Shown here one piece after another: positions 1,245-37,234 of a DNA stretch of 64,000 bases. This DNA comes from a virus: the IMG/VR virus record IMGVR_UViG_3300045974_000102, positions 32,001 to 96,000 of that record. The stretch is one strand, 5' to 3'. Within the stretch, counting starts at the first letter, position 1, and each line of letters opens with the position of its first letter. A program made the position numbers and the translations under genes. The notes under the pieces are model-generated. The model was not told where the DNA came from. It did no database searches and saw only the letters and a program-made list of their open reading frames with translations.

Positions 1245-2881
1245 AGTGTAGCCTTCTTAAGTGCAGTTATAGTATCTGATGTAACTATCATTCTATAGAC
1301 ATCATTATAAAAGAAAGTATCAAATATGTTGTGCAGCTTTATACCGTTAAATAAAACATTTCCTATTGATGATAGCTTGAACAGATAGTGCCTATCGCCA
1401 TGAAGCTTTAATCTACATTGAGTATATTGCCCAAATGAATTAGTGTCTGAAGGGTAAGTCCATCCTGAAGGCACATTAGGTGCGAATCCTACTAATGAAC
1501 TAATGTCTTTGATGTAGAATGGCTTCAGTTTAGTTCTGTCTAATTCTATCATGTAGTCAGAATCTTTCTCTCCAGAGACAATAAACCTAACAGTAGCAGT
1601 ATCTCTTCCATCTCCAAACAGATCTTTAAATGGTATATTAATCCTATTAGTTTCTATATTTTCTTTATAAAGGTTAAGTAGAATATCTGTCATGTAAGGT
1701 GCGCTATGACCATCAAGGCCCACTTCATTTACAATGATTGTCATTGTATCTATATCGTTATGTCTTGAAGTAGGATATACCCAAATACTAAATCGTTCAT
1801 TTAAGCAGTCTTCTTCATAATCAACTCTGATAGCTTGGAAAGAAGATTTATTAATGTCTAGCTCTGCTGCATAAGTCTTTGGAATTATTAGTGGGAAGCA
1901 ATAAAGTTTAAGTGTATCTGTTGTTATGTAGGCAAGTTTGTTAGCAGTATCTATAAAGTAGTTAGTTATAGTTTCATTTGCTTGGAGTGCAAGGTCTACA
2001 GTCTTGTAAAGATCTAGTGTCGGTGGATAAGTAACAGCATTATTTGCACTGATACTGATCTGTAGTTGTTTATATACGGTGTCAATTGATGCGAATGATC
2101 TGTAAAAGTCGCCCTCTACTTTATCTACAACTAAGTATTCCCATTGACCAACTTCTCCATTGATGTAAGGATAAAGAATTATTGAACAGTTTAGGTCTGT
2201 TCCAATTGATAGAATAGATGATATATAAGAAAACTCTGTATCTGTTTGCACATCTGCTACATTTAGTATATCAATTCTTTCTTCAACTTTCTTGTTTGAT
2301 ACGTCAAGGCCTTCTATTACAAGTGTGATATTATTAAACCCTTCTGATAGTGCTGAGGCATAAAATCCACCAGCTAGCCTAATAGTTACTGCTGTATTAG
2401 GGACAGCAAGACTCATGTTAAACTTAACGCGTGGGTGCATTTCTAGTAATACAGATCCAGGCAGTGATGTAAATTCAGTTAAGAATGCGTCACATGGAAA
2501 TGAGTGTCTGAAAAATTCATCTGCGGACTCAACTTGCTTCATAAGGTATTGTTTATTTGTATATTTTGAGAAGCCACTTACAGGAGTAGCAAAGATAATA
2601 TCATCAACTCTAGACTGGATAATCTCTGGCATAGCTGAAATAGAAAAGCCATTCACTCTATTAACTGTTATGAACTCAAGATTATTGAGTTTAAAGTTTG
2701 GAGCATATGGTATATCTTCAAGTATCTCATCATTGGAATCAATAAGACAGCTTAGAAGTCTAATCGTAGCTGATGAGTCATTGTTATATTTTATCTTATT
2801 AACTGTAGCAGCTAAGTATAAACTATAGGTAAACTTGTTTATATTCTTAGCAGTAGTTGCCTTTAATGGATACTTAAGCAT
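1241..2881 (-). CDS. Putative baseplate/structural protein (546 aa)
   Basis: Long ORF translationally coupled to baseplate J; beta-rich; no diagnostic motif. Confidence 0.45.
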   Translation of the reverse strand: MLKYPLKATTAKNINKFTYSLYLAATVNKIKYNNDSSATIRLLSCLIDSNDEILEDIPYAPNFKLNNLEFITVNRVNGFSISAMPEIIQSRVDDIIFATPVSGFSKYTNKQYLMKQVESADEFFRHSFPCDAFLTEFTSLPGSVLLEMHPRVKFNMSLAVPNTAVTIRLAGGFYASALSEGFNNITLVIEGLDVSNKKVEERIDILNVADVQTDTEFSYISSILSIGTDLNCSIILYPYINGEVGQWEYLVVDKVEGDFYRSFASIDTVYKQLQISISANNAVTYPPTLDLYKTVDLALQANETITNYFIDTANKLAYITTDTLKLYCFPLIIPKTYAAELDINKSSFQAIRVDYEEDCLNERFSIWVYPTSRHNDIDTMTIIVNEVGLDGHSAPYMTDILLNLYKENIETNRINIPFKDLFGDGRDTATVRFIVSGEKDSDYMIELDRTKLKPFYIKDISSLVGFAPNVPSGWTYPSDTNSFGQYTQCRLKLHGDRHYLFKLSSIGNVLFNGIKLHNIFDTFFYNDVYRMIVTSDTITALKKATL

Positions 2882-4086
2882 TATTGTGTCACCGTTATGA
2901 TAACAGAGCTTTCTTTAGGCTCTATGATAAGTTTCTCATTTTTAGATAAATAGATTTTTTCATCAATCGTTGTTACACTATAAGGAACCTTACCTCTAAA
3001 ATCCATTGGGCCAACATACCCATTCACTAATGTCAAGTCGCATGATACTATGTCATAACTAGCGCTAGTAATATATTTAGCTATATCCTGTATATAAAAT
3101 TCTGTGCCAAAATAGTTATTTATATATGTAGATAACCTATCTGTAAGAAGAGTAGTTATTGTTGTAGACTGTTGCACATCATATGTCTGTCTTGTCTTAA
3201 CAGCAGCAACAATTTCTAGTCCTATATAATTAGGCTTTGTTACTGTATAGTTGACCCACGGTGGTATAACTGAATCGAGAACTGTTTGAGCTGCTGATAT
3301 TGTTGCGTCTGATGTTATAGGTGATATCCCTTGCACATAGAAGGTGCATGTGCCTCCACCATTTGAAGCATGATCTATATAGACTTCAGATATACCTGGT
3401 ATACTTGTGAGCATATCATAAAGTCCAAAATAGTTAGTCTTTGGAAATGCTTTTAAAGAATTAGAAATTCTGTATCTATAGTTCTCGTCTGTCTCGTCTG
3501 AGCGACCAGTTCCAATTACTGAAACGTTCGTAACTAATAATGAGTTAGATGCTGCTCCAACATATTCAGTAAAATTATGTGAAGTTAATGTATTCGCCTG
3601 GATGATTTCATTTGGACCAGATAGTAACTCTGCACCTATAAAGCATTCTGCGGCAGTAGTTAATAGTGTTACTTGTGCCTTTAATCTAAACCTAAATGTA
3701 TTAGTGCCACTTCCACCAGAGATAATTGTTCCCTCAGGAATAACTATATTATTTGGTGTTGAGCCTATTGTATTTATATCACCAAACTTACCATACTTTA
3801 CATAAAATTTTAATGTCTTCATGTCTTCTGTAATGAATGGGGTTACAGACTTTCTTCTTTTTGTGCCAAAGAAGTTTTCTCCTATGTAATTCAAATCTTT
3901 GCCTTGAGAGCTAATAATACTATTGCGCTTAGAGTAAAGATCAAGCTGGTTCTCAAGTTGCATCTGTTCGTATGCACATGACTGTGCAATCTGATATGCT
4001 TTAGATCCTGGCACTAAATTATAAAGTCCAGTTCTATCCTGCATTCTTGATACTATTCGACTAAGCTTATCATCTATTGTAGCCAT
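2881..4086 (-). CDS. Baseplate J-like wedge protein (401 aa)
   Basis: GKDLNYIG, IVIPEGTII and GRSDETDENYRYRI motifs typical of Baseplate_J / Mu gp47. Confidence 0.85.
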   Translation of the reverse strand: MATIDDKLSRIVSRMQDRTGLYNLVPGSKAYQIAQSCAYEQMQLENQLDLYSKRNSIISSQGKDLNYIGENFFGTKRRKSVTPFITEDMKTLKFYVKYGKFGDINTIGSTPNNIVIPEGTIISGGSGTNTFRFRLKAQVTLLTTAAECFIGAELLSGPNEIIQANTLTSHNFTEYVGAASNSLLVTNVSVIGTGRSDETDENYRYRISNSLKAFPKTNYFGLYDMLTSIPGISEVYIDHASNGGGTCTFYVQGISPITSDATISAAQTVLDSVIPPWVNYTVTKPNYIGLEIVAAVKTRQTYDVQQSTTITTLLTDRLSTYINNYFGTEFYIQDIAKYITSASYDIVSCDLTLVNGYVGPMDFRGKVPYSVTTIDEKIYLSKNEKLIIEPKESSVIITVTQ

Positions 4087-4926: not shown

Positions 4927-5300
4927 TATTGATCAAAGACCCCGCCTATATAGAAGTGATTAAGCGCATACATTTTTGGTGTTACTCCCATGTCATTAAC
5001 CTTTCCCATAATCTTAGCATTAAATCTTCCACCTGTATGCTGGACATATACTAGTTCACCAGCTTCATATTTATTGCCTGCCATATAGTCATGTTGTGAG
5101 CACGATATGATAGCCTCAACTGCTGGATTAAAAGTGCCTTCTCTTTCTAGCACAACAGTAAAAACACCATGACCATCATCTATACTTTTTATTATACCTC
5201 TACACTGCTGAGGAGTATTGGTTGTATCTGTTGTGCGATTAAGCATGTCAATGCCTAACTCACTTACATCATTAAATAATCCTGCTATATTACCAGACAT
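4926..5300 (-). CDS. Putative OB-fold spike-associated protein (124 aa)
   Basis: RGIIKSID...YEAGELVYVQH pattern like gpV/gp5 N-terminal OB folds; follows the hub gene. Confidence 0.4.
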   Translation of the reverse strand: MSGNIAGLFNDVSELGIDMLNRTTDTTNTPQQCRGIIKSIDDGHGVFTVVLEREGTFNPAVEAIISCSQHDYMAGNKYEAGELVYVQHTGGRFNAKIMGKVNDMGVTPKMYALNHFYIGGVFDQ

Positions 5301-8300
5301 TATGCTTTCTCCTTACACCACTTAATTACAGCGTATCTCTTTTCTGCATAATTCTTCTCAACATCATAATTATGCTTTAGCTGCTTAGAGCTTTCGCCTT
5401 TAGGTATCGGATTGTTATCTGCATCAAAGCCTCTGCATTGCATACCATTATATCTCCAATAGCTTAGCTTATGGATAACCTCTCTCTTAGCCCAAGGATC
5501 TGTGCCTTTATATTCGCCCATATATCTTGTTTCTGCATCTATAGCTCTTTCTGCTATATGTTTTACACCAGCAAATATAACCCATTTTGCATACTTCACA
5601 TGATTATCACTTAAGTCTTCCCAGCTTCTTGGAAACGCAGGAGTCTTTGTTTTAATCCAATCTGCATCCTGAGCCATTTCACGAATAATCTTATCGACCC
5701 ACTCTTTACCATGAGAGCCATCTTGTCCAGCAGATAGTTGCATTAAGCCAATGTCGCTTGACTTAGCGTGTGCATTAAATGAACTTTCACACTCTATTGT
5801 TGTAGCTATCATTAATGGGTCTAGAAGTGGAGTTGTATTTTTATACTTATTAAAAGCTCCTAATACCCAACTGAACAATACTTCTGGTGTTGCTATATCT
5901 TGGTTCTTCTTGTTCATTTGCTCAAGCTTCCATTTAATATATTCAATCCCTTTACCTGGTGGCACAGCCTGTAGGTCAGCTAGTGATAGAGGTGTTCCAG
6001 GATATGCCTTTTTGAATTCTGATGGGCTCATGTCTGCCATAGCGCCTGGTAGTGGATTAACTACATTTCTATTTGGATTCTCAAGCTTAGATATTCCTGT
6101 CCAGTTGACTGAGGTGTAGTCACCTATCTGACGTAGTGTATTGTCAATTGTTTTCTTGTAGTCTGCTATAATTCCTTTACCAAACATGAATGCATCATTA
6201 TTTTTATAGCCTTCCATACCTTGCATTAGTAGTGAATTACGATACCATATAGGATGCACTATTATTGCATTATTCTTTGTGATAGACTTAATAGCCATGC
6301 TCTCAAACAACTGCGGTATCATCTCTATACAAGTAAGTAGTAAATATGCTATACCAGCTTTCATAGGAGCTGCATGGATGATTGTGCCAAATGGACTAAG
6401 GGCTAATCTTTCTCCAAAGCTTCTCTTCGCCATTGCAGTTATAGTTGCTCCAGCCTCAGCTTCTACAGCTGCGGCTACTGGTTTTGTGGTAAGCGCCTTA
6501 GCTAGGTCTGACATAAGATTTTTCTTCTTTAATAGATTACGCGCAACTGTTGATTCAGCCCCTGCTCCGAATGTTGCTTCTTCGAGAGCTTTCGCTATTT
6601 CTATTTCTGACATACCAAGTATTTCAGCACTTTCTTTCTTAAGTATCGTAGCTATCTGATCTATTAAACTCTTTCTGCTATGGGCTGCCCATTTCTCAGC
6701 GAGTGTAGTAGCAAAGCCTTTTACATTAGTTAGTATCTCTCTAGCCCTAAACTTAGCTCTTGCTGCGTTTCTGCTTAATACTCTTTGCTCAGCACTATAC
6801 ATCCTCTCTGACATTATAAATTCATCTGCACCTCTAAGCCAGTGCATTAGCCCGCCAAAGAAATAGCCAAACTCTCCAGCAGACACCATAGCATTAAAGC
6901 CCATTGCTTCTTTAGCTAACATAGGCACATATTCGTATTCACGTCTTTCCATAGCTGCAGTATCTGGATTTGCTTTTCTATTCTTTGCTTCATCACTACC
7001 TATGACCTGACTGATAAGAAATGCCCCACCTGCTATAAAGGCAAGTGCAGCTAATACCCAGACACCCATTGATCCTAGTGCGTATCCTCCTATTGCTTGT
7101 AGGACTCCTCCTACACCAATCGTGCCTATGTGTTCAAACATAATTCGTTTGAATACTTGTGCTGTGCTTAAATACGAGTCATGGTTGACTGAACATACTA
7201 GGTTAGGCACTATATGAGTTGTATAGCCCATCTCTGAGTCGAACTTATGTATAACAGTTTCTACTTCAACCCAGCCATACATCTTGTTTACTTTGTCAGC
7301 AATGTATATCTTATCATAAGGCTCTATTTTAGAATTGCCTCTAATAATAAGTGTGCCACCATATAATCTTTCAGCACCTTCTTTAAGTCTGCCAATAGCA
7401 TATTGATTAGCCACGTCTTCATTGTCTGTCCAGTTTATAGATTCGAACTTTTTAATTAGATATGTTGGATCTATATCTGCATCAATACAGAACTCAGTTA
7501 CCTTGTCTGAGTCTTCTACGTCCTTCTGGTTCTTAGCATACTGAACAGTTATATGATTCCACCCTCTGTCAGGTGTAGCCTTTATGCCATTGTGTATAAT
7601 ATCTTTAAATGACGATACCATATGGTGTTTCTGAAATGGAATAAATGGTGCTACTGCATTGAAGAATTTGGTGCCTTCAGCAAATTCACCATATCTATTA
7701 AGCTTTGGCCCTAAGTTCTTAATTGCTTCTCTAATGCCTTCAGCATACATATCTGTGCTTAGTAGTGACATTGAGGTTAAGGATGGAGCCATTGCTTGAA
7801 TAGGGTCATCTGTTCGGAAATAATTCCATTCTGCTGGACCTAAAAATAGAGTTGAGCGGTTTCCATAAGGTCTTACATCTAGTGCATAGTTAGGATAAAG
7901 GCGCTTAATGTTTTGTAACACATCCCATATAGTAGTCTTATTATTAATATTAAAGTTAACGCCATGCCATAACTTATTCCAAATGTCAGGAGCATAGATA
8001 TTGTCATCTATTGGATTGTTACCAGACTGGAATATCTTATAGAAGTGCTGTCCTATTTCAAGACTTGCCTTCTCATTATTATATAGGGCTCCAGCGAATG
8101 AGCATCCTATCTCACGGATACGTCCTGCAAGAACGCTTAGATAACCATGCTCACCTTGCTTGCCCCACCATTTATGCATAACTTCTTCTGTCCAGATGTC
8201 TGGCACATGTGTTAGTGGTTTATATAATGTTGCTATAGATGCACCTGCAGCAGTTAGAGCCATATATCTAAATAGTTGCTTAGGTCCGAGAAAGGCCGCT

Positions 8301-11300
8301 GTAGCTGAGATGCCTGCACCAGCACCAAATATAAGTCCTGACTTCCAGCTATCTTTAAACATTGCCATTACAGAGATATGACTGCGACCAAATCTTTCTA
8401 TGAAGCTTCCATATATCTGTCCGAAGTGTGCGACTTGTGGATTACTTCTTAATATCTTACTTATAATGTCTGCATAGTTATTGCCACTTATATTTTCTGC
8501 TCTTGATGATGGCGCAGAAATAAGTTCTCTTCCGTCACCATGAGCTTCTATCTCATAAATGTAAGTATCTTTGTTTCCACTTAACGATGTAATAGTGCCA
8601 ATAAATACTGTATCTAGCATTCTAGGATCTGTTGAATATCCAAGTCGAAGTGCTATTCTCATTCCAGTGCGCAAAGGAACTACAGATGCTCCATAAATAC
8701 CAGCTGAGCCGTCTGAGAAAATACGAGTGTCTTCTTCTGTGTCCTTGATATTCTGTGGTGAGTATGGGCTAGATCCTTCAAATACATTTCTAGATGTGAT
8801 CTGATTAGGTCTTATTTCTGTAGAAATATACTTAGGGTCTATAACAATCCTGCATCTTAATAAGTGAACAGGGTTGTTCTTATCTCTAATAACCATTAAG
8901 TCTTGGACGAGTCTAAAGTCATAATAGTCATCAAGTGAATAGTATTTATAATCAGAAGTATCTGATTTAATTACATAAAGCTTATATGTAGGGAATGCAT
9001 TCTCTAGGCCATCTGTAGGCATCATGCTTTTTAGGATGTTCTCAGCACTCTGATTAGCTGCTGACTTCATATCTGCATTAGTAACTTCACCACCAGTCCA
9101 TGGCTTATCATTACTCATACTATATGCGGCAGCTTGTTCAGTTAGGTTTGTTGTATCTTTTTTGTAGTAGTTATATATAGCCTTATCTACTGCATTAGTA
9201 GGCGTTGCAGAGGCATCAGATCCATAACCTGTAGAAGTAATCTGAGTTGCATCTATCATTGGTCTCCATGTGTTAGATTCAAACTCTGCTATGCTGCTCC
9301 CTTGGTAGCCTGGCATGCCATCTATCGTGTCTTTCCATAAGCCATTTAAATTACTTGGATCACTAGAGCCAGCTTTAGTAAATGTATTTATCCATACATC
9401 ACCTGATGGAGCCAGTGTGTCACTTGGAGAGAGCGTGAACTTAGTGCTATTGAAATCTCTAATCGGACCTTCGGCATTGAAAACATATTCTGAGACTGCA
9501 CCTATACTATCTGTGTAGCCCATAGAAGATAAATAGTATGCCGCTGGACATCTACTTAAAAGTCCAAGCTGTCCTTGGAGTTCCATTAGTGTTCCATATC
9601 TAGGCATTGGAGCGCCAAGCTTCGTGTTATCTTTTATAATTGGATGACAGTCAGATACTAGAGTTGAGCTTACAGGTCCTACTGTTCTGCCATCGGCTCT
9701 CTTAATAGCAATCCCTCTGCTATTTCCATCTGCTACATTTACAATATCGCCTTGCTCCTGCTTTTTATCATTATTATAAAGTCTGGCAGAGTAAGTAGAT
9801 GTAATAAATCCTTCTGCTTCTTTTCTAAGTGCATTCATCCTGCCATATGCACAGTCTGTAAGCATGCTTGTGCTAGTCAGACTTGTTGGTGGTCTATCTC
9901 TACCTTCTACTATAGATCTAGCCCATCCTGCCCATCCTATAGTTTTAGGATCCATCATAGCCTTGGTAAGTGATGATTCTTTTCTTTCATCGTCTCTAAC
10001 TACTTTGCCATCTTTGACATAATTAACATTCATATCTTTAAGTCTTGTTGGCATTGTGTTTGCTATAATAGGACTAAGTGGAGAGTCTTTATCTATAAGG
10101 TCTTTAAAGGTTGCACCTTCTTCGGCACTAAAGGATTCTCTTGCATAAACATTCTTCCATACTGTTGTGTTCATAGATGGAGAAACAAAGTCTACAACGT
10201 CTGTCTTAATTTTGTCAAGGAACTCATATAAGTTAGTTACTTTATAGTTAACATACCAATCGCCCATAGTGGCTGAGTCAAGCATAGATGCTGCTACAAA
10301 ATTATCAATCCATGGGAAATATCTATGGCCGCCCCATGGCTTAATTTTCATAAGTTCAGGTTCAAGGATTACTTCTCCTTCTGGAACTTCTTCTTCGGAT
10401 TGGTTTTCTACAGACTCGCCGTATGTTCCAGTGCCTTCAACTACGCCTCTTATTAGTAGAACATAAAGTGCTACCCAGCGCCTTACGCTGCTGTTAGTTG
10501 AGATGTCTCTTTCGCTCTTAATATCAACTTCTAGGATCCAGTTGCCGCTTACTCCATCTTCGCCTTCTGTTGCAAGATATTCTTTGCACTGGGTAGTCAT
10601 CTTACCATAATTACGCAAGATCGCGTGCTCTCTGTAGTCACCTTCGAAGTAAAAATATAGGGCTCTGCCATCATTTGCAAAAGCTTGTTTCTGGTTCCAT
10701 GTTTCTTCGAATGCATCTTTAAACAAAGCCATAAGTAATACTTTGGCATTCATTCTCTGTTCAGCAGTGGCGGTTTTATCAAGCATTGCTAACAGTTGGC
10801 CTTTAGTTATCGTGTTTAGGCCTGATGTTATATTCTTAGTAAAGTAACTTGATGAATATTCTGGTAGCTCAGCAAACTCCTCATCTGCAAAGCGAGACAT
10901 TTTATTTATTTGCCAATTCTCTAATGATTTAATTACGCCTACATTTGATTCTGGTAAAAGCAGTTTATCTTCATATATACCACCAGCTAAAGCTTCAGCA
11001 AAGGTTATGTTACCTCCACCCCACTCTGGATTTGTGCTTCTTATAAAGAACTTCCAATTATTAAATATCTTTGATTCGTTCCATCCGGCTTTACGACTTA
11101 CTACGTCAGTTACTAAAGCAAGGAGTTGGGCTATTTGCTTATATTTAGTTCTAGCTCTATTGTCTGTTACAGTGCTATAGAGCTGTGCTCTGCTATCTAT
11201 AAGGCCCATGATGCCAGTCTTTGGGTCGTCTGCTATAAGAAAGTAAGATGAAAGTATAGCCCTGGTAGCTTTCTTAAATACTGACAAGTCTGGTGGTATG

Positions 11301-13525
11301 CCATTGAATGAGTTCTTAGCCATCTTATCTAGAATATCATTCTCACCATCAGCTAATGAATTAGTCTTTTCTCTTTCAATAATTTTCCCAACTCTTGCCT
11401 TAACTGCTTCATCTGATTGGGCGATAGCTACTACTCTACTAAGCCCCCAATAGGAGTCTTGCTGAGCTGCTTTATTAATATAGCGAGCATTGTAAATATA
11501 AGACTCTTTTGTTAAAGAAAGATTTACATCACTTAAACCTGGGTGTCCATCAAGTGAGGTAATAATAGAACTCTGCAGTGTAAGAACTTCTGTCAAGCAT
11601 AGTTTGGTGACACCATTTGCTATTATGTATCTGCCATCATAAGTTCCATAGTTTGGACCTCTATCATATTCTGGTCTATAGGTCTTTAATACTTTACTAA
11701 TAGTTTCTGAGTTAGTTGTCTTGAAGTTAATATCTACGTTAGTTTCGCCTGGTCCAACATACTGAGCTGTTGGAATAGACATGCCAATGATAGGTATCCA
11801 TGCAAAGTTGTTTTGATATGTTACAGCAAGACTATGTGCTTCTTCTTCAATAGTCGAGTCTACAATTAAATTTAATCTTCTGGACATTTCTTCAGCTTGT
11901 CCATTGCTAGCTTCAACTGCCTGATGAAACTTCTCTCTATCTATTTTATGGATTAGTAGAGATGAGTCTTCTGCGAACCATACGCGGTCTGGGTCATTAA
12001 GAATTTCTTCAACGAATAAGTTGTATGGGTGTATCGCATCTTCTAGGACAAGTGTCTTAGGAATAGTTGCATCTTTTTCGTCTTTAATAGTTGTCTTTAG
12101 AGACAAGTCTTTTAACTGTGATATTGTTCTTGCATTCTTATCATACTTATAATATTCAAGTCTTTCAAATGTATCACCGTTGAAATATGAGTTATAATTA
12201 AATAGTGAGAACTGGAATGTTGCGCCTAGTGAGCCTGGGTGTCCATCTAATGTGTAGACAGTATAAGAGTCCATTGTAACAGGAATATAGTCTGTGCCAG
12301 CATATGGACTTAGTATTACATGTCCTTCTCCTATCAACTTTCCAACTAAGTCAACTGATCTAATAAGATTAAATGGACAGTATGTATACTGCACAATAAT
12401 TCTCTTTAGTTCATTGTTGATAGCCTCTTCTCCACTGAATATTACGTTCATCTTTATTGCAAGTCTATTCGTAGAGTTAGAAATTGGCTTAGACTCTCTG
12501 CCTAATATAGGGACGCTATATGTTGTGCGCATTTGAGCAATAGTCACGTGTGTAGGAGGAACCTTAAGCCACACGTCGCCTATCTTAATTATTTCAGTTT
12601 CACTATCACATTTAGATAAGATCTCTTGTCTTCTAAGATCATCCGTGCCATAGAGTTTATTAAAGTCTCTTCTGGCTGTATCTCTCATTGCAATAACAGA
12701 CTGATTCTGTGGAGTTGTAGGCAGAGCTGCTGCATTTGCTACATCTGGATTTAGCTTTAGGAATGCTGCAAATCTTTGATTTAGGTATTGTGGAGTAATA
12801 CTATTTACTGCATCTGCCCATGCTGGATCTTTTGATGGAAGCAATGGTATAGCTTTGCCTATATCAACAAGCATAACATTTAACTCTCCTCGTTGATCTG
12901 TAGCTATACCATAATCGTTTACGAATGGGAGACCTGTTATTGCTGTTTGATCTTCAAATGCTACCTGAGCAGGAGTTATGGCTCCAGTGCCAAGACTGTC
13001 AGTTCTTAGCTTCTGGATATCTAATACCATATTAGGATTTTTAAAACCTTCTTGTAAAGTTTCATGTAGAAGTATAGTGCCTTCTACAGCTTTACCAACT
13101 TCTGGAACAGCATTACCTTTTGCATCTACACCAGCAAGGTTGCTATTAGTGGTTATATGGGCAAGAGCAACTTGTTCGCTGCTGCCATCTGTATAAACAA
13201 GTTCAAGTTGAGTGGGTCCAGTTGCTTTAACAAAAGATACTATCTTGCCAGGCTCAACACCTTTTACTTGTTTGCTGTTAACCATTACAGTAGGATATGT
13301 ATTTATATCTCCAGAGCGATAAGCTTGATATGTTGGTGTGTCGACCTTATATGCAGCATGCTGAGCTATTGTTGCCATTGATGCTTTTAAATTTTGCGCA
13401 GTTGTCCCATTACCTGACCAAGCTGATGTTGAGAACTTCTTTTTATTTTCATCTAAAAGGTTGTAATTCCACACATTAGCTGCTACGGAACTTACACCAT
13501 CATACGAACTTTTTAAAATTGCCAT
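5300..13525 (-). CDS. Giant baseplate hub / tail-associated lytic transglycosylase fusion (2741 aa)
   Basis: Hub-like segments LRTGMRIALRLGYS...VFIGTI and GTLIIRGNSKIEPYDKIYI...VIHKFD; hydrophobic Gly/Ala helices; C-terminal SLT motifs IECESSFN, IGLMQL, RYNG. Confidence 0.75.
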   Translation of the reverse strand: MAILKSSYDGVSSVAANVWNYNLLDENKKKFSTSAWSGNGTTAQNLKASMATIAQHAAYKVDTPTYQAYRSGDINTYPTVMVNSKQVKGVEPGKIVSFVKATGPTQLELVYTDGSSEQVALAHITTNSNLAGVDAKGNAVPEVGKAVEGTILLHETLQEGFKNPNMVLDIQKLRTDSLGTGAITPAQVAFEDQTAITGLPFVNDYGIATDQRGELNVMLVDIGKAIPLLPSKDPAWADAVNSITPQYLNQRFAAFLKLNPDVANAAALPTTPQNQSVIAMRDTARRDFNKLYGTDDLRRQEILSKCDSETEIIKIGDVWLKVPPTHVTIAQMRTTYSVPILGRESKPISNSTNRLAIKMNVIFSGEEAINNELKRIIVQYTYCPFNLIRSVDLVGKLIGEGHVILSPYAGTDYIPVTMDSYTVYTLDGHPGSLGATFQFSLFNYNSYFNGDTFERLEYYKYDKNARTISQLKDLSLKTTIKDEKDATIPKTLVLEDAIHPYNLFVEEILNDPDRVWFAEDSSLLIHKIDREKFHQAVEASNGQAEEMSRRLNLIVDSTIEEEAHSLAVTYQNNFAWIPIIGMSIPTAQYVGPGETNVDINFKTTNSETISKVLKTYRPEYDRGPNYGTYDGRYIIANGVTKLCLTEVLTLQSSIITSLDGHPGLSDVNLSLTKESYIYNARYINKAAQQDSYWGLSRVVAIAQSDEAVKARVGKIIEREKTNSLADGENDILDKMAKNSFNGIPPDLSVFKKATRAILSSYFLIADDPKTGIMGLIDSRAQLYSTVTDNRARTKYKQIAQLLALVTDVVSRKAGWNESKIFNNWKFFIRSTNPEWGGGNITFAEALAGGIYEDKLLLPESNVGVIKSLENWQINKMSRFADEEFAELPEYSSSYFTKNITSGLNTITKGQLLAMLDKTATAEQRMNAKVLLMALFKDAFEETWNQKQAFANDGRALYFYFEGDYREHAILRNYGKMTTQCKEYLATEGEDGVSGNWILEVDIKSERDISTNSSVRRWVALYVLLIRGVVEGTGTYGESVENQSEEEVPEGEVILEPELMKIKPWGGHRYFPWIDNFVAASMLDSATMGDWYVNYKVTNLYEFLDKIKTDVVDFVSPSMNTTVWKNVYARESFSAEEGATFKDLIDKDSPLSPIIANTMPTRLKDMNVNYVKDGKVVRDDERKESSLTKAMMDPKTIGWAGWARSIVEGRDRPPTSLTSTSMLTDCAYGRMNALRKEAEGFITSTYSARLYNNDKKQEQGDIVNVADGNSRGIAIKRADGRTVGPVSSTLVSDCHPIIKDNTKLGAPMPRYGTLMELQGQLGLLSRCPAAYYLSSMGYTDSIGAVSEYVFNAEGPIRDFNSTKFTLSPSDTLAPSGDVWINTFTKAGSSDPSNLNGLWKDTIDGMPGYQGSSIAEFESNTWRPMIDATQITSTGYGSDASATPTNAVDKAIYNYYKKDTTNLTEQAAAYSMSNDKPWTGGEVTNADMKSAANQSAENILKSMMPTDGLENAFPTYKLYVIKSDTSDYKYYSLDDYYDFRLVQDLMVIRDKNNPVHLLRCRIVIDPKYISTEIRPNQITSRNVFEGSSPYSPQNIKDTEEDTRIFSDGSAGIYGASVVPLRTGMRIALRLGYSTDPRMLDTVFIGTITSLSGNKDTYIYEIEAHGDGRELISAPSSRAENISGNNYADIISKILRSNPQVAHFGQIYGSFIERFGRSHISVMAMFKDSWKSGLIFGAGAGISATAAFLGPKQLFRYMALTAAGASIATLYKPLTHVPDIWTEEVMHKWWGKQGEHGYLSVLAGRIREIGCSFAGALYNNEKASLEIGQHFYKIFQSGNNPIDDNIYAPDIWNKLWHGVNFNINNKTTIWDVLQNIKRLYPNYALDVRPYGNRSTLFLGPAEWNYFRTDDPIQAMAPSLTSMSLLSTDMYAEGIREAIKNLGPKLNRYGEFAEGTKFFNAVAPFIPFQKHHMVSSFKDIIHNGIKATPDRGWNHITVQYAKNQKDVEDSDKVTEFCIDADIDPTYLIKKFESINWTDNEDVANQYAIGRLKEGAERLYGGTLIIRGNSKIEPYDKIYIADKVNKMYGWVEVETVIHKFDSEMGYTTHIVPNLVCSVNHDSYLSTAQVFKRIMFEHIGTIGVGGVLQAIGGYALGSMGVWVLAALAFIAGGAFLISQVIGSDEAKNRKANPDTAAMERREYEYVPMLAKEAMGFNAMVSAGEFGYFFGGLMHWLRGADEFIMSERMYSAEQRVLSRNAARAKFRAREILTNVKGFATTLAEKWAAHSRKSLIDQIATILKKESAEILGMSEIEIAKALEEATFGAGAESTVARNLLKKKNLMSDLAKALTTKPVAAAVEAEAGATITAMAKRSFGERLALSPFGTIIHAAPMKAGIAYLLLTCIEMIPQLFESMAIKSITKNNAIIVHPIWYRNSLLMQGMEGYKNNDAFMFGKGIIADYKKTIDNTLRQIGDYTSVNWTGISKLENPNRNVVNPLPGAMADMSPSEFKKAYPGTPLSLADLQAVPPGKGIEYIKWKLEQMNKKNQDIATPEVLFSWVLGAFNKYKNTTPLLDPLMIATTIECESSFNAHAKSSDIGLMQLSAGQDGSHGKEWVDKIIREMAQDADWIKTKTPAFPRSWEDLSDNHVKYAKWVIFAGVKHIAERAIDAETRYMGEYKGTDPWAKREVIHKLSYWRYNGMQCRGFDADNNPIPKGESSKQLKHNYDVEKNYAEKRYAVIKWCKEKA

Positions 13526-13537
13526 TATAACCTCTTG

Positions 13538-16500
13538 TTAGGAGTATCTATACATATCTTCTTTATAAGGATTTGAACCATCTTGGCGGGTATGAACTGT
13601 ATTATATCCTCTGGAGGATACAATGTTTCCTATTGTTGACATCGCTTCTCTGCTGTCTGTTAATAAGTTCATGCTCGTATTATAATTTGCTTTGGTCTGT
13701 AAAGTTCTCTGTGAACCCATTTGAGAGCGTGGTGCTTGGAACGCTGGATTGTTTACTGATGGTAAATCATTTGGATCTTCAATAGCTCCATCGTCTGTTG
13801 CTAAATTCCACATAGCTAAGCCTGCTAGTGCTGCAGCACCTGCCCCTATCATTCTTGGTAGTGTGACATGATCCTCAATAAACTTCCAAGCCTTATCAAC
13901 TCCAGCGAATTTCCTTGACGGTGGCACATAAGATCTTCTGAGCGTCTCAGCTACAGTCATTTCAATATTAGCATCTATAAGTTTAGACCTGTGCATGTGA
14001 TCCATTATAATTTTAGGTATATCTTCTTTATTAGTTTTACCAGTTTCAACTCTCTTAGCTAGCGAGTTAAGCATGCCGCCTATACTGTCAGATGTTCCAG
14101 CCCCAGCTCCTTCGTCAATACCCTTAGAGAGCATGTTAAGGAAGCCACCATTGAAACCAAGTGCTTCTGCTTCGTCTTTGCTAAACTGTGATGCTATAGT
14201 TGGTGTATTTTTGATTGCTCTCTGATACTCTGCGAATGCATCTTCTACCTTAGTTGTGGCACCTGAATATCTGTGAGCTACACCATACTCGTCGAAATTA
14301 AGCTCTCTGATATTATATGTTAGGTCAGCTAAGTGATTAGAGGCATTCCACATTTCTGTGCCTCTAACTGCATTTTCTGCCATCCATGATGTTCCACTCT
14401 TTCTTGCTGCTATAGCTGCATGAGCTAAGATGGGGCTCATCTCACCGCCAGAGTTTCTAAGTAGATTTACATAGCCTTCATCTGTAATATTGCCCATAGC
14501 TTTAAGCACATTATCCATAGTAGCCTCGACTCCATTGGGGCCAAGGATAGACTGTATATGCTTTGAACTAATAATGCTCTGCTCCCAGAACTTAGGGACA
14601 AATGTATGAATGAATGTTCTATATTTTGAGAATGTGTCTTCAGCTATTCTGCCATCTACAAGTCCTTCAAGGCCACCTTTCATCTGGAATGTCTGCGCAG
14701 AGAATGCACCTGTTAGGCCTTTAGTAAGCCATGCTGCTATACCAGTATTAACCTCAAGATGGGAGGCAGATTCGAACATTGCCTCAACTTCTTTATCTCC
14801 CATTTTTGCAAATGATTGGAATCTCATATCTGGGAATAGAGTGCCAATTGCACTTCTGTTTCCTGCTGCGTTCATAAAGTTAAAGACAGTCTTCTGGTTA
14901 CCATTAATTTCAGCAAGTCTTTCTGCTTTAGCTTTGCTGCCAAACAGTGTGAGTAATTGTATTTTATCACCGTCATGGTCAGCGTTCATAAGTAGTCTTT
15001 GTGCATGACCTAGTGCTAAGCTCTTGCCTTGTATCGGATTCTTTTGATCCCAGTCTGGGAAGATATTAGCTAGTGCCATACTCTTGGCGTAGATAGCAGG
15101 GTAACGTGTGACCATGCCAGTTAAGCCTTCTTTATCAATTATATTCATTGCCTCTTTGGAATAAAATCCACCACCACCATCTAAAAATTTATTTATATAC
15201 CATTCTAATTCTTTACCTTTAGCAATTTTAGCTTCTGCCATCATACTGCCTACTGTATGTAGTGTATCATTTTGCCAAGCAAATAGACTCTCTCTTGATT
15301 CTATTCCCGCCACATCTAAGTTCTGCTCAAAGAAGTTTCCTTCACCAAACCAGTCTCTAAGAACATCTTTTACTTCTACATTATTGCTTTCAGCTGCAGA
15401 CATTGCTTCAGATAACATTTCATCTATTGAAGCCGCATATGTTTCTTTTGAAACTTTAGTTACATTACCTATTGCGTAATGTAGGTCTTGAGCTTCTTGC
15501 CAATAGGATGCCTTATCTTCTACCATCTTTTCAAGCTTAGTTAATGGTGATGACTTCTCTGATAAGAAGTTTACATCTGGAGTATTCATACTATAATAAG
15601 CCCCAGGGACGTGTAGTGATGCTTCACGTAGGATGCCGCCCTTAGTTGAATGTCCATGAATATCTACAGCATATGCTAAAGCCTCTAGTCCACTTTTGCT
15701 TAATTCTCCTTGTGGTGAGTTAACTACATCATTAAGTAGCTCATGCACTTTCCATGAGAAGTCGCTCAATGCTACCTTATCTTCTTCAGGCATATAGTAG
15801 CCGCCTTTGAAGTAGTCATTGCCTGGTATAAAGACTTGTCTGTCATGTGCCTGTAGTAAGAAGCCGTTTGGATTATTGTTTGAAGATAAGAATGAATCCA
15901 AGAAATGTAGTGGATCCTGAATGTTTCTTCTGGCTTTATCGCCATATCCATAAGGTCCCATTATTTTCTTTAGCTCTTCAACATCAACTAACTTGGCATC
16001 TGTAAACGCAGATACATCTTCACCTGCAATAGACATCTCCATTAGGCGCTGTTGCTCCATAAGCCTTGGTGTGTCTATTATACTTCTTAGAGACAGTTCT
16101 TCCATGACACCAGGAGTGTCTCTTAGATACTGCATATCTCTAAATCCTATACGCATTGTGTTACTGCCTATGCCTTGCGCAAGAGATTCAGTCTCTTGTG
16201 GCGAGAAGCCAGTCGCAAGCCAGAAGTTTGTATCTAGACCCTCTAGCGCATGGTAATCATGCCCAAATTTACGTTCATAATTTAAAAAGCCTCTCTGGCG
16301 CATCTTATTATAGTTACGAGGACCTAGTCTATTTGTGGCATATTCTAGTCCTTCGAAAACTAACCTTTCAGTATTCCTGTGCGCTAGTATCTTAGCCTTT
16401 CCAGTTGTATTAAGCGCATTTAAGTCTTCAACAACTTTTTCTCCCATATAACCTAGGTCATCAAGTGACCCTATTGATGTATCCATTCCAGCATGCCTTT

Positions 16501-18883
16501 GCAAGCCAACTAGGTTTTGCACATCAAGAAATTGCTGCACAGGGTTATCGCTTATCTGAAACTGTAGTCCCTCAGTCTTTGCAATCTCACTGAGGTTAAG
16601 ATCGCCTGTGCGGTTGCCAGTAAGGTATTGTGAGAAGCGTGACGCTGCATCGCCTGTAAGAGTTAAATTATTGTCTAGAGCAAGTAAGTGTCCTCTTAGA
16701 GCATCTTGCATAAATGGTAGAGCTGCTCCTACATTCTTTCCAATAACTTCTGATGTCGGACCAGTACCGCCTTTCGGGCCATGAATAGCAAGTAATGCTT
16801 TCTCGTAATAGTTAAGAGACATTCTAAATTCATCTTTCCCAGGTGAGTACATCCTAGTGACAGCAGCACGCGTTGACTGGCCATGAGCTAAAAGCTTAGT
16901 TGTGTCTTCTATATATTTGCCGTGCAAGATCCAGCCATCATAGCCAAGCTCTTGGCGTAAAGCTCTAGACTCAAGAGTCCGTAAGATATCTTCTTCGTCT
17001 TGCTCAAACATTGCTTCTGCTCTCACTAAAGATTCTCTGCCTACAATTTCTTCGTCTTTAGCTATATCACCTGTGAGCTGTCTACCTACTCTATTGACTC
17101 CAATATGTGTGCCTTTTTTCATTGTTAACTTCTGAACATCTATGTCTCCAGCAGCTATCTTCTTATATACACTACCTATCGAGCCAACACGTCTTTCGCC
17201 AGATTTAGTTATATAGTTGACTTCAGCTTCCTCAGCATAGAAGTTTTCAAACTTTACTTTTTTATATGTACCATCTTCCTGCATTTCTTCTCTATATTCT
17301 AATTTTGGCACAGTAAGTCTCTTAATGAAATCATCTACATATATATTCTTTCCTCTCTTAACTGACAAATCTACCCATCTAGATACTTCAATAGCCTGGT
17401 CTGTTGTAGGGTCTAGTGTGCCTAATAGATTAAGATTTCCACCTAGTCTCATATGCTGTAGGTGTGGACTTTCCATGTAGTTATTTGTAAACATGCCTGG
17501 GTTATATCTTGCTTGTGTCGTGCCGAAGTAAGACGGCTTGTTACGGTTAGCGAATGATATTCCTTTAAATGCCTTATCGCCTTCTGCTTGGTAGATGCCA
17601 TATAGGTTTTCTCTAGCATTTGCCGATAAGTCTGCTACCTGCTTCTGCGGACCTACAAATCCGAAGTGTTTCTGTAGAAATGATTTAGTCTTTTGGAAGT
17701 TAGGGTTTACTGCCTTTGCTCCCATGGTCTTTGTTTTGAAGGTCATTAGGTCTGGGTTGCCACGGATACCTTCACCCATCCCATACAATAGTCTTTGGAT
17801 ATCAGGATTGAAAGCATCTTCCCCAGGACGGAATGAATGCAATTGCGATGTGCCCATAGCTACTGAGTCAATGCCTTTTAGATGTGCCTTATCGCTTAGC
17901 TTTAGTCTACCAAAGAATGTTGCTTCGAGCTCTGAGCCTGCTAGTGCTTCTGCTGCGGGATTAACACCTTGGATGTTCTGAGCTGTTTCAGTTGCGCCCT
18001 TTAATACTTTAGCAAGCATCCTTGCTAGATTGGTTTGAGAGCCAACAAGACCAGCCTGCTCTCCTATAGTAACGGCCATCATTTTCTCAATATCGCTCTT
18101 AGTAACGCCTTTGCCTTCTAGGCTCTTGTAATAGTCACGTGCCATGTCAAAGTCTAAGCTTCCAACAATACCACGCTTCTTTATATCCCTAAGTGACTCA
18201 AGGATATGAGTGTTAGGATCCATTACCTCAGCACCAAGACCTTTGGGTGTGTCTACTATATCGTATTTCCTTGAGTGCACCCATCTTGAATGTGTGCCTT
18301 CTTGTATCCTTGTCTCTACCCACGCTTTAGAGCTCTCATCGTATTTCGAGAAGGGCACATTAAGTTTATATCCGCCTACGTCTACGATAGCATTGGTGCC
18401 TTGGAAGCCTTCAAATCTTCCCTTGATACCTATACTCTCAAGTATACCCATAAGCTCCTGACCGATAGGGCTGCCCTCTTCATCAACTACCTCTTCTAGC
18501 TTATTGAAATACTGCTTACCAGCTCTTCCTTTAGATGCGCTTAGCTGTGCAGCATCAAGGTCATGTCTAATAAGTTCATACTTCTCAGCATTTTTACCAG
18601 CTAAGTCTTCTCTGAACTTATTTAGGATCTTGTTCCTTGGGTTAGCTTTCGCAGAGCCAGTAGACATTGCCTCATACATTCTATCAGCTACCTTAGCTGA
18701 TGTGCTTTTCTCAGCAGCAACTTTAGGATATATAAAGTTGACAGCCTTTGTGCCTACTTCCATAAACTTCTTTTTATCGTAAGCATAGAACCCAAGTGCT
18801 GCTGCACCTGTGCCTAGAATGCCAGCAGTCATTAGTGAGCCAAGAGTGCCTGAGTCTTCTTCATATGGGCTGTTCGGGGTCAT
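13538..18883 (-). CDS. Putative single-chain two-barrel (virion) RNA polymerase (1781 aa)
   Basis: TRYPAIY (RYP at 15098-15106) followed about 40 aa later by NADHDGD (14966-14986), matching the beta-prime R-x-P / NADFDGD architecture; upstream TTKLLAHGQSTR resembles beta GDKxxGRHGxK; hydrophobic helices at both termini. Confidence 0.75.
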   Translation of the reverse strand: MTPNSPYEEDSGTLGSLMTAGILGTGAAALGFYAYDKKKFMEVGTKAVNFIYPKVAAEKSTSAKVADRMYEAMSTGSAKANPRNKILNKFREDLAGKNAEKYELIRHDLDAAQLSASKGRAGKQYFNKLEEVVDEEGSPIGQELMGILESIGIKGRFEGFQGTNAIVDVGGYKLNVPFSKYDESSKAWVETRIQEGTHSRWVHSRKYDIVDTPKGLGAEVMDPNTHILESLRDIKKRGIVGSLDFDMARDYYKSLEGKGVTKSDIEKMMAVTIGEQAGLVGSQTNLARMLAKVLKGATETAQNIQGVNPAAEALAGSELEATFFGRLKLSDKAHLKGIDSVAMGTSQLHSFRPGEDAFNPDIQRLLYGMGEGIRGNPDLMTFKTKTMGAKAVNPNFQKTKSFLQKHFGFVGPQKQVADLSANARENLYGIYQAEGDKAFKGISFANRNKPSYFGTTQARYNPGMFTNNYMESPHLQHMRLGGNLNLLGTLDPTTDQAIEVSRWVDLSVKRGKNIYVDDFIKRLTVPKLEYREEMQEDGTYKKVKFENFYAEEAEVNYITKSGERRVGSIGSVYKKIAAGDIDVQKLTMKKGTHIGVNRVGRQLTGDIAKDEEIVGRESLVRAEAMFEQDEEDILRTLESRALRQELGYDGWILHGKYIEDTTKLLAHGQSTRAAVTRMYSPGKDEFRMSLNYYEKALLAIHGPKGGTGPTSEVIGKNVGAALPFMQDALRGHLLALDNNLTLTGDAASRFSQYLTGNRTGDLNLSEIAKTEGLQFQISDNPVQQFLDVQNLVGLQRHAGMDTSIGSLDDLGYMGEKVVEDLNALNTTGKAKILAHRNTERLVFEGLEYATNRLGPRNYNKMRQRGFLNYERKFGHDYHALEGLDTNFWLATGFSPQETESLAQGIGSNTMRIGFRDMQYLRDTPGVMEELSLRSIIDTPRLMEQQRLMEMSIAGEDVSAFTDAKLVDVEELKKIMGPYGYGDKARRNIQDPLHFLDSFLSSNNNPNGFLLQAHDRQVFIPGNDYFKGGYYMPEEDKVALSDFSWKVHELLNDVVNSPQGELSKSGLEALAYAVDIHGHSTKGGILREASLHVPGAYYSMNTPDVNFLSEKSSPLTKLEKMVEDKASYWQEAQDLHYAIGNVTKVSKETYAASIDEMLSEAMSAAESNNVEVKDVLRDWFGEGNFFEQNLDVAGIESRESLFAWQNDTLHTVGSMMAEAKIAKGKELEWYINKFLDGGGGFYSKEAMNIIDKEGLTGMVTRYPAIYAKSMALANIFPDWDQKNPIQGKSLALGHAQRLLMNADHDGDKIQLLTLFGSKAKAERLAEINGNQKTVFNFMNAAGNRSAIGTLFPDMRFQSFAKMGDKEVEAMFESASHLEVNTGIAAWLTKGLTGAFSAQTFQMKGGLEGLVDGRIAEDTFSKYRTFIHTFVPKFWEQSIISSKHIQSILGPNGVEATMDNVLKAMGNITDEGYVNLLRNSGGEMSPILAHAAIAARKSGTSWMAENAVRGTEMWNASNHLADLTYNIRELNFDEYGVAHRYSGATTKVEDAFAEYQRAIKNTPTIASQFSKDEAEALGFNGGFLNMLSKGIDEGAGAGTSDSIGGMLNSLAKRVETGKTNKEDIPKIIMDHMHRSKLIDANIEMTVAETLRRSYVPPSRKFAGVDKAWKFIEDHVTLPRMIGAGAAALAGLAMWNLATDDGAIEDPNDLPSVNNPAFQAPRSQMGSQRTLQTKANYNTSMNLLTDSREAMSTIGNIVSSRGYNTVHTRQDGSNPYKEDMYRYS

Positions 18884-36010: not shown

Positions 36011-37234
36011 TTAAATGTTTATGATGCCTGGAGGTCTATTATCTTTAAGGGCAACTAAGTTAGCTTTAACCCAGCATACTTGCTCTTGGTTCTTCTCTGT
36101 TGTATAAATACGGTCTGCCATAAATCTTACTGGTATATCTATATAACGTGCCCAATTATAGTGAGTATAATATAAGAAGCTATTCTCGTTCCAATATGAG
36201 ACATGTGTTGGGTCCTGAAATGCTCCACGTCCGTCTGTAGATGGCACTTGAATGAAAGCATAGCCTCCTGGTGCTAATACTCTGTAGAGTTCTTTCATTG
36301 TATGTAGTGGATCGGCAAGATGTTCAAATACATCAAAGGCCCTAACGGCTCCAACTGAGTTATCTGCAAAAGGCCAAATGCCATTAAGATCGGCAATAAT
36401 ATCGGCGTCTTTAAGATCTACAGACAAATAGCCTGGTGCTGTATCAAATCTACCACCTAAATCAACTGTTAATAAGCCCTCTCTGTTTGCCCAGGCCTTA
36501 ACCATATCTTCTATGTAAAGATCATACAATCTCCAGCAGTTAGCTTGTATCTCGTCTGAATACTTAATCCAGGTGTTTTCTCCAGTAATTCTATAAGCAT
36601 ATAAGAACTCATGAATAGCATGGAACTTAGTTATCATATAAGTACGAGCCATTAAGTCCTGGTCATCAAGCACTCTCATGTCTATGCTGTGTCCACCTGC
36701 TTGCCAGTATATATCTTTACGCCATGCTCTTAAATGGTCAGGTGCAGTCCATATCTTTGAGATAGCTGTAGGTGAAGGATCTGGTGTTCTGTGAACTCTA
36801 AAGTTTCCAGTAATATAGTTAGACCAGCCCCAGGCAGGATTAAAGGCTTCAGCGGGCGTATAGACGCCATTAGTATCAACAAATCTACCATCGTCTGAGT
36901 AAACAAAACCTACCTCTGGGTCCTCAAAGGCTTCTCTTATCTTGTCAATAGCTCCAGGCATTAGCATGTCGTCGTGGTCAAGTTCAACAAGGATATCACC
37001 TGTGCACTTAGAACAAGCAGCTCTCTTAAGAGCTCCAACATATAATGCTTCATCATAGCCCCAAAATACTTTTATTCTAGTGTCTGTCTGTATACCTAGT
37101 AGACCTGAGTTGCTATATGGTATATCTGTGCCACTTACAACTATAACCCATTCATCAAAGGATTGGTCTTTAATGCTGTCGTAGAGTTCAGGAAGCCACT
37201 TAGTATTATGTGTAGGAGTAAAGATACTTATCAT
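36011..37234 (-). CDS. Glycosyltransferase family 2 fused to a class I SAM-dependent methyltransferase-like domain
   Basis: ISIFTPTHN, ELDHDD (DxD), DDQDLMAR; then VDLGG, PFADNSV, FEHLADP, RVLAPGG, DPTHVSYW. Start moved to the ATGA overlap at 37234. Confidence 0.9.
   Translation of the reverse strand: MISIFTPTHNTKWLPELYDSIKDQSFDEWVIVVSGTDIPYSNSGLLGIQTDTRIKVFWGYDEALYVGALKRAACSKCTGDILVELDHDDMLMPGAIDKIREAFEDPEVGFVYSDDGRFVDTNGVYTPAEAFNPAWGWSNYITGNFRVHRTPDPSPTAISKIWTAPDHLRAWRKDIYWQAGGHSIDMRVLDDQDLMARTYMITKFHAIHEFLYAYRITGENTWIKYSDEIQANCWRLYDLYIEDMVKAWANREGLLTVDLGGRFDTAPGYLSVDLKDADIIADLNGIWPFADNSVGAVRAFDVFEHLADPLHTMKELYRVLAPGGYAFIQVPSTDGRGAFQDPTHVSYWNENSFLYYTHYNWARYIDIPVRFMADRIYTTEKNQEQVCWVKANLVALKDNRPPGIINI

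Follow-up and report, generated by a model that had tools for sequence, protein, structure and literature searches.

A giant gene in the tail operon of a virus assembled from metagenomic DNA (IMG/VR record IMGVR_UViG_3300045974_000102) encodes a protein of 1781 residues that, judged by its predicted structure, belongs to the multisubunit type of two-barrel RNA polymerase, with beta and beta' fused into one chain that has about 1500 core residues. The gene lies on the minus strand at positions 13538-18883 of the window, by which we mean the whole 64,000-nucleotide stretch analyzed, bases 32001-96000 of the 115,882-base-pair linear record. It is an open frame with an ATG start, and the positions given below for its parts refer to the window and to the minus strand. 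On the basis of the models, it is at least very highly probable that the protein is homologous to two-barrel RNA polymerases and unites the two barrels in a single chain, and the fold combined with the conserved residues makes a catalytically active RNA polymerase quite probable. The overall explanation that we favor, with some reserve, is a one-chain beta-beta' RNA polymerase that is carried in the particle for early transcription. Phage two-barrel RNA polymerases encoded with virion genes are known already. The present case, a predicted fused, multisubunit-type beta-beta' enzyme in a myovirus tail operon, is unlike the characterized examples and comes from a family that no annotation library searched here recognizes. 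A literature search found no published description of this polymerase family.

Predicted fold of the two halves

The structure was predicted with AlphaFold2 in two parts. The C-terminal model (residues 571-1680, 28 sequences) has a predicted local distance difference test score (pLDDT) of 76.4 and a predicted template modeling score (pTM) of 0.74; the N-terminal model (residues 40-960, 24 sequences) has a pLDDT of 75.1 and a pTM of 0.70. When the C-terminal model was compared with the Protein Data Bank (PDB) by Foldseek, the best 50 matches were all beta'/largest-subunit (Rpb1) chains, headed by a chain from AR9, the N-terminal part of its beta' subunit (expectation value, E, 9.7e-5). Residues 953-1642 aligned to beta' residues 23-1355, with 253-435 residues per alignment. 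The best 50 matches of the N-terminal model were all of the beta/Rpb2 type, headed by 6vvv_C (E 2.1e-5), and residues 133-906 aligned to beta residues about 19-1304, with 290-490 residues per alignment. No PolD chain was among the listed fold matches of either model. Since the halves match beta and then beta', the protein is best described as a beta-beta' fusion of the multisubunit type and not as a relative of YonO or gp66.

The predicted structure contains a double-psi beta-barrel with the metal-binding DxDGD loop (DPBB-A, beta'-type), a second double-psi beta-barrel in the same chain (DPBB-B, beta-type), and, beyond this minimal two-barrel core, beta-type N-terminal domains and beta'-type clamp and C-terminal regions. 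A first-pass annotation, made from the sequence, had proposed a double-psi barrel around NADHDGD and both barrels in one chain, and the models agree with it on both counts, with an N-terminal half that is predicted to fold like beta/Rpb2 and a C-terminal half like beta'/Rpb1. It had also named YonO, phi14:2 gp66 and the P23-45 enzymes as single-chain two-barrel polymerases. The two barrels in one chain are indeed shared with these, but the protein is closer to a fused multisubunit beta-beta'. The single-chain enzymes QDE-1, P74 gp62, P23-45 gp96 and phi14:2 gp66 all align from residues 659-662 onward, a start that coincides with the lysine segment EDTTKLLAHGQSTRAAV, and gp66 covers only 110 residues of the N-terminal model.

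The beta-like (second-largest-subunit-like) half spans positions 16154-18496 (about residues 130-910) and includes a beta-like double-psi beta-barrel with large insertions at 16193-17440 (about residues 482-897). Within this barrel, a strand-loop-strand hairpin at 16850-16933 carries K663 and R672 and is a candidate counterpart of the beta GDK...RHGxKG lysine motif. The segment EDTTKLLAHGQSTRAAV (residues 659-675, 16859-16909) lies inside the hairpin and encloses the shorter stretch, 16868-16897, that the first-pass annotation had likened to this motif. The model places strands at residues 651-666 and 672-678, so that K663 ends one strand and R672 starts the next, which is the geometry expected of the GDK...RHGxKG element. 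In the model, K663 and R672 are candidate counterparts of beta K1065 and K1073, which contact the nucleoside triphosphate (NTP) in Escherichia coli.

The beta'-like (largest-subunit-like) half spans 13958-16027 (about residues 953-1642). Its double-psi beta-barrel, at 14945-15604 (about residues 1094-1313), ends in the predicted catalytic metal loop NADHDGD (14966-14986, residues 1300-1306), which is preceded by the R-x-P-x-[IL] motif TRYPAIY (15089-15109, residues 1259-1265), the counterpart of NRAPTLH in beta'. Downstream of the loop, a helix of 33 residues at 14660-14758 (residues 1376-1408; helix H806-838 of the C-terminal model) lies within the stretch aligned to beta' and is a candidate bridge helix. 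It contains a near-invariant TKxxTG (residues 1387-1392), which we take to resemble 'ALKTANSGYLT' of beta' and 'KTAETGY' of Rpb1. The EQxxISSKH motif at 14558-14584 (residues 1434-1442) is, going by its sequence, a candidate trigger-loop or NTP-contact element.

Searches with the models also returned proteins of cultured phages from BFVD, namely of Acinetobacter phage ME3 (E 2.3e-4) and Microcystis phage MaMV-DC (E 4.2e-4). The family profile matched nothing in ME3 (vB_AbaM_ME3) or MaMV-DC (Ma-LMM01 group), and ADxDGD is absent from both. A sequence-level relation to the family was detected for neither phage: the two DxDGD sites of ME3 are outside the large tail genes, and hhalign of MaMV-DC ORF65L against the family was not significant. 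Two giant hypothetical proteins of MaMV-DC, a cyanophage, carry DxDGD. ORF65L (1677 residues, L102:9225-14258, minus strand) has QRTPMG followed after about 40 residues by NEGDADGD at residue 1352, and ORF82L of the same phage (3560 residues, L102:26653-37335, minus strand) has NLGDFDGD at residue 2537.

Conservation within the family

An exhaustive phmmer search with residues 801-1682 against 1.84 billion representative sequences retrieved 31 proteins, mostly of 1650-1900 residues, and identities in the family range from about 20 to 45%. The nearest relative is 45% identical over residues 1000-1600 and 39% over the full length. With the single sequence as query, no match was found in Pfam, PHROGs, PDB sequences (phmmer), 50,697 phage records (tblastn) or ESM Atlas features, and a word-indexed protein search gave one homologue only, from the single sequence and from the profile alike.

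Conservation was scored on an alignment of 23 full-length relatives, which are 18-42% identical to the query. R1260 and P1262 of the R-x-P motif and D1302, D1304, G1305 and D1306 of the metal loop are invariant in all 23, as are K663, R672, K716, T1387, G1392, Q1435, S1439 and K1441, while K1388 and T1391 are conserved in at least 90%. The four residues of the metal loop are still invariant when fragments are included (28 sequences). Invariance across the family indicates that the motif residues are under selection and did not arise by chance. The motifs and terminal hydrophobic helices quoted in the first-pass annotation are all present in the translated frame where it placed them, and its expectation that the motif is kept in homologues was borne out by the R-x-P residues, the Asp triad, K663 and R672. 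It had further read NADHDGD as a variant site in which F is replaced by H. The site and its three Asp residues are present, but between the first and second Asp the family varies freely (H, L, N, Q, T, F, W or Y, depending on the member), and some members carry the canonical ADFDGD. Thus, the replacement is not a feature of the family.

The hydrophobic helices that had been noticed at both ends fared unequally. The Gly/Ala-rich helix near the C-terminus (13796-13867, residues 1673-1696) is kept in all 23 members, with a Kyte-Doolittle maximum of 1.46-2.05. The Gly/Ala-rich N-terminal helix (18779-18844, residues 14-35) scores 1.44-1.47 in the present protein and is weaker and more variable in the relatives (0.85-1.75).

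The best-conserved region of the family is not the active site but the C-terminal tail, DPNDLPSVNNP...NPYKEDMxxY (13541-13795, residues 1697-1781). Column conservation is 0.46-0.64 in the tail (about the last 100 residues) versus about 0.3 elsewhere, and the peptide pattern of the tail was the query that retrieved the related loci described below. This degree of conservation suggests a conserved protein-protein contact, and the sequence makes the tail a candidate docking or incorporation signal. A second property of the whole family is the lack of cysteine, the count being zero in 23 of 23 members. The polymerase and the giant protein encoded upstream of it together have 3932 residues and no cysteine, against a phage proteome average of 0.99%, at which the probability of finding none in 1781 residues is about 2e-8.

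Sequence similarity to beta'

A search of PDB sequences with the family profile gave 17 matches at E<=10, of which the top three, and 15 overall, were beta' chains. Staphylococcus aureus beta' (8x6f_D, E 0.065) led, followed by phiKZ gp55 (7ogp_A, E 0.14) and AR9 (7s01_d, E 0.4), with further bacterial beta' chains at E 1.5-1.7. The three profile alignments shown all lie on R-x-P...NADxDGD, and the R-x-P motif is aligned to 'RNPTLQ' of phiKZ gp55 and to 'RNPTIS' of AR9. In a pairwise hhalign comparison with 20 gammaproteobacterial RpoC sequences, residues 1254-1321 aligned with E. coli beta' 419-479 (E 5.9e-4), pairing R1260 and P1262 with R425 and P427, and D1302, D1304 and D1306 with D460, D462 and D464. 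Among all Pfam families, every one but RNA_pol_Rpb1_2 (2 of the 23 members, best E 0.076) matched at most a single member. These similarities to beta' are weak singly and mutually consistent.

No such link was obtained for the beta-like half: hhalign against 20 gammaproteobacterial RpoB sequences was not significant (E 0.45), and hmmsearch at maximum sensitivity gave noise only. Since this half is invisible to sequence methods, the argument for it is built on the structure prediction. In the 116-kb genome record, PF00562, PF00623 and PF05183 found nothing.

Gene order and neighboring genes

The record was assembled from a pond metagenome. A single DNA sequencing run was matched and is probably its source, and the same search, which gave this one DNA metagenome, listed no RNA sequencing run carrying the record. 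CheckV estimates a completeness of 56%, which agrees with the length of a relative of 206,638 base pairs that is rated 100% complete. Almost all genes of the window are on the minus strand and together form a structural module, in which we identified the terminase large subunit (57942-59747), the portal (52679-54805), the major capsid protein (48278-49456), a cysteine-free collagen-like fiber (42367-44145), the tail sheath (30050-32386) and a baseplate J-like wedge (2881-4086).

Three giant, tightly coupled genes for proteins of 2151, 1781 and 2741 residues separate the sheath side from the baseplate side. The central gene of the three is that of the polymerase, with the sheath gene upstream of it and baseplate J downstream. 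The polymerase gene occupies the locus expected of a tape measure, between sheath/tube-side and baseplate genes. The first-pass annotation had put it between tape measure and hub, but no tape-measure family of Pfam or PHROGs matched it or either giant neighbor. The polymerase start is preceded by an AGGA ribosome-binding site 7 nucleotides upstream and lies 10 nucleotides past the stop of the 2151-residue gene (18893-25348, minus strand), to which it is translationally coupled. The downstream giant gene (5300-13525, minus strand) begins 13 nucleotides past the polymerase stop, preceded by AGAGG.

The 2151-residue protein, free of cysteine as noted above, has three hydrophobic segments and, at residues 1277-1369, an MTES_1575/DUF559 restriction-endonuclease-like domain (E 3e-22). 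The portion kept in relatives, at 43-45% identity, is formed by the C-terminal 700-790 residues. In the 2741-residue protein, residues 1823-2112 match an 'endolysin' PHROG (E 3e-35) and are followed by a very hydrophobic segment of 46 residues (2133-2178) and, near the C-terminus, a weak SLT match (residues 2565-2607). Hub, membrane and muralytic functions may be combined in this one protein. Neither flanking giant matched a PDB sequence by phmmer.

Four related viral contigs were found (L002-L005), the complete 206,638-base-pair record among them. The gene order is identical in all four: homologues of proteins of 443, 521, 135 and 191 residues, the upstream giant, the polymerase, the downstream giant, small genes of 134 and 131 residues, and baseplate J. 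Within this tail block the polymerase gene evolves fastest, with about 25% identity versus 41-45% for its neighbors.

Two other genes of the record are of separate interest. A structural-module protein of 415 residues (36011-37258, minus strand) has PHROG matches of the glycosyltransferase-like (residues 18-116) and methyltransferase-like (residues 263-359) kinds. An open reading frame of 257 residues (record 97860-98633, minus strand) belongs clearly to the caspase-family peptidases (Peptidase_C14, E 1e-31). Such an enzyme is unusual for phages and could serve as a maturation protease or in host interference.

A second polymerase candidate

A second polymerase candidate, of 1021 residues, is encoded outside the window on the plus strand (record 104979-108044, L093:8979-12044), in an opposite-strand block of small unknown genes. 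It contains GRNPMVG, followed after 40 residues by GDEDGD. In seven sequences of this protein R478, P480, D522, D524, G525 and D526 are invariant, and distant ones have GDFDGD. Pfam, PHROGs, and PDB sequences and profiles gave nothing. By ESM features, the closest clusters to this protein are viral ones with PF05183, of the RdRP/YonO type, in 57-91% of their members (cosine 0.95-0.96). This resemblance belongs to the 1021-residue candidate and not to the 1781-residue protein. Homologues occur in three of the four related records (the fourth is a 19% fragment), and one homologue shares a 401-kb contig with the nearest homologue of the giant polymerase. The cysteine content is ordinary, at 1.08%. 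From its sequence, the second candidate is probably a non-virion RNA polymerase.

Looking through the opposite-strand block for repeated motifs that resemble early promoters, we found only one two-copy repeat of 29-33 nucleotides. The 33-nucleotide repeat containing GGCCCTTGTAAAAAGGTCGCC occurs at L093:12937-12969 and 13272-13304 in the plus-strand block, with the copies 335 nucleotides apart and 88% identical, and has no further copy elsewhere in the record.

Comparison with known polymerases

The multisubunit cores of bacteria (beta/beta'), archaea and eukaryotes (Rpb2/Rpb1) and the nucleocytoplasmic large DNA viruses consist of two chains with about 2750 residues, whereas the predicted core here is one chain of about 1500. 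The non-virion RNA polymerases of phiKZ and AR9 are split into four to five chains. The present protein differs from both the cellular and the phiKZ/AR9 enzymes in its extra terminal helices, its conserved C-terminal tail and the placement of its gene in a tail operon. With YonO of SPbeta and with QDE-1 it shares the core only; these have no counterpart of the N-terminal beta-like domains. PF05183 matched neither the polymerase gene nor the genome record, and the best fold match is not of the YonO/QDE-1/gp66 lineage.

Two known virion polymerases resemble the protein in genomic setting. P23-45 gp96 is a virion two-barrel RNA polymerase fused to the tape measure, and it transcribes the pre-early genes, among them that of the non-virion polymerase gp64 (PMC10770324). 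Like gp96, the present protein is a single-chain two-barrel enzyme, here by prediction, at the locus expected of the tape measure in a tailed phage and was found via a conserved DxDGD. As in P23-45, there are membrane-type segments in the gene block and a second, smaller polymerase candidate elsewhere in the genome. If the second candidate holds, the analogy suggests a set or cascade of two polymerases on the P23-45 pattern. The crAss-like virion polymerase gp66 is packaged with the products of two neighboring genes, gp65 and gp67, which are fused to gp66 in some genomes (10.1101/2020.03.07.982082). The trio of 2151, 1781 and 2741 residues recalls the phi14:2 arrangement, a giant polymerase gene between two large genes, at the level of the genes.

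Role in infection and alternative explanations

The conserved place in the tail operon, the lack of cysteine, the terminal helices and the conserved C-terminal tail together may mark a protein that leaves the cytoplasm and is translocated. On balance, we lean slightly toward a polymerase that is carried in the particle and used for early transcription; virion packaging and a possible membrane tether had also been put forward in the first-pass annotation. In the scheme that we propose, the catalytic Mg2+ would be bound by D1302, D1304 and D1306 of NADxDGD in the beta'-like barrel, basic residues touching the incoming NTP would come from the K663/R672 hairpin in the beta-like barrel, and the long TKxxTG helix would serve as the bridge helix. 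The polymerase would be made late, alongside the tail proteins, and built into the particle with the two flanking giants, held by its conserved C-terminal tail. At infection, it would be expelled via the contracted tail and transcribe the first phage genes, which would probably include that of the second, smaller polymerase, as in P23-45, N4, phiKZ and crAss-like phages. The terminal Gly/Ala-rich helices might anchor the polymerase in the cell membrane at the site of DNA entry, although we regard membrane anchoring through these helices as doubtful.

Several observations weigh against this explanation. Pfam RNA polymerase families were not matched at curated thresholds (none for the query, P0001; best E among the members 0.076). 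Between the beta-like half and beta, sequence similarity was not detectable, the models come from shallow alignments of 24-28 sequences, and the non-significant RpoB comparison weakly placed a different segment, residues 895-916, on GDK...RHGNKG. The equivalence of K663 and R672 with beta K1065 and K1073 is a proposal read from strand positions in the model. With no cysteine in any of the members, the zinc-binding cysteines of beta', and hence its zinc sites, are absent. The Asp loop is separated from the putative bridge helix by about 80 residues versus about 320 in cellular enzymes, and many of the accessory elements are thus lacking. To be encoded in a structural operon is no proof of presence in the particle, and both packaging and activity are read here from genes and predicted structures. 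Finally, passage through a tail tube is impossible for a polymerase of about 200 kDa while it is folded, and we assume packaging in the tail or head, followed by refolding.

The same gene could instead encode an active polymerase that is not a virion component but a late enzyme, made from the structural operon to transcribe late or middle genes in the cell. Such an enzyme would have an equally strong polymerase fold and active site, presence in the virion is a matter of inference, and the packaged enzyme could equally be the second candidate. What makes this unlikely in our judgment is the translational coupling of the gene within a sheath-to-baseplate block that is kept in every relative, the absence of cysteine from the giant family as opposed to its ordinary content in the second candidate, the terminal hydrophobic helices, and a C-terminal tail that is better conserved than any other part. 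The second candidate, for its part, lies among small unknown genes of the opposite strand, the usual place of an early non-virion enzyme.

Members that share about 20% of their residues overall keep, without exception or almost so, the full Asp triad as well as R-x-P, the K/R hairpin, TKxxTG and ISSKH, which is hard to reconcile with a protein without catalysis. This bears on the idea of a polymerase-derived structural or ejection protein, tape-measure-like or channel-forming, that makes no RNA. Other chemistries of two-barrel enzymes come under the same head, such as QDE-1-type RNA-templated synthesis, priming or PolD-like DNA synthesis, but the best fold matches of both halves are DNA-dependent multisubunit enzymes and PolD is missing from those listed. 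We consider this whole group of explanations improbable. A chance resemblance of motifs in an ordinary giant tail protein, to which the failure of the single sequence to match Pfam, PHROGs, PDB sequences or the phage records and the weak E-values to beta' might seem to point, is effectively refuted by the invariance of the motifs across the family and by two independent models whose unbiased structure searches were topped only by RNA polymerase subunits, each half matching the correct subunit in the correct order.

Implications

Beyond the packaged one-chain beta-beta' polymerase that we favor, we offer tentatively a more elaborate possibility, that jumbo myoviruses of one clade, with genomes of about 200 kb, eject through the contractile tail a kit of three proteins centered on this cysteine-free enzyme. 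Anchored by its terminal helices at a membrane channel formed with the neighboring giants, the polymerase might transcribe the entering end of the genome, help to pull the DNA in and switch on the YonO-like second polymerase. If so, the enzyme would represent the cellular transcription core in minimal form and fused by nature, showing how far beta and beta' tolerate reduction and that a polymerase of this kind can survive transit of a tail tube.

To our knowledge, the phage-carried two-barrel RNA polymerases that have been shown experimentally are few and unrelated, namely those of phiKZ and AR9, crAss-like gp66 and P23-45 gp96. The family described here extends the idea of a phage-carried two-barrel polymerase to contractile-tailed jumbo phages. 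If active, its members would be among the smallest polymerases of the beta/beta' type, useful for understanding the minimal transcription core and the evolution of fused and split forms. An active enzyme would also explain a host-independent start of transcription in jumbo phages of the present clade, and would give a function to one giant 'hypothetical' gene of the kind that fills the tape-measure locus in many metagenomic phages.

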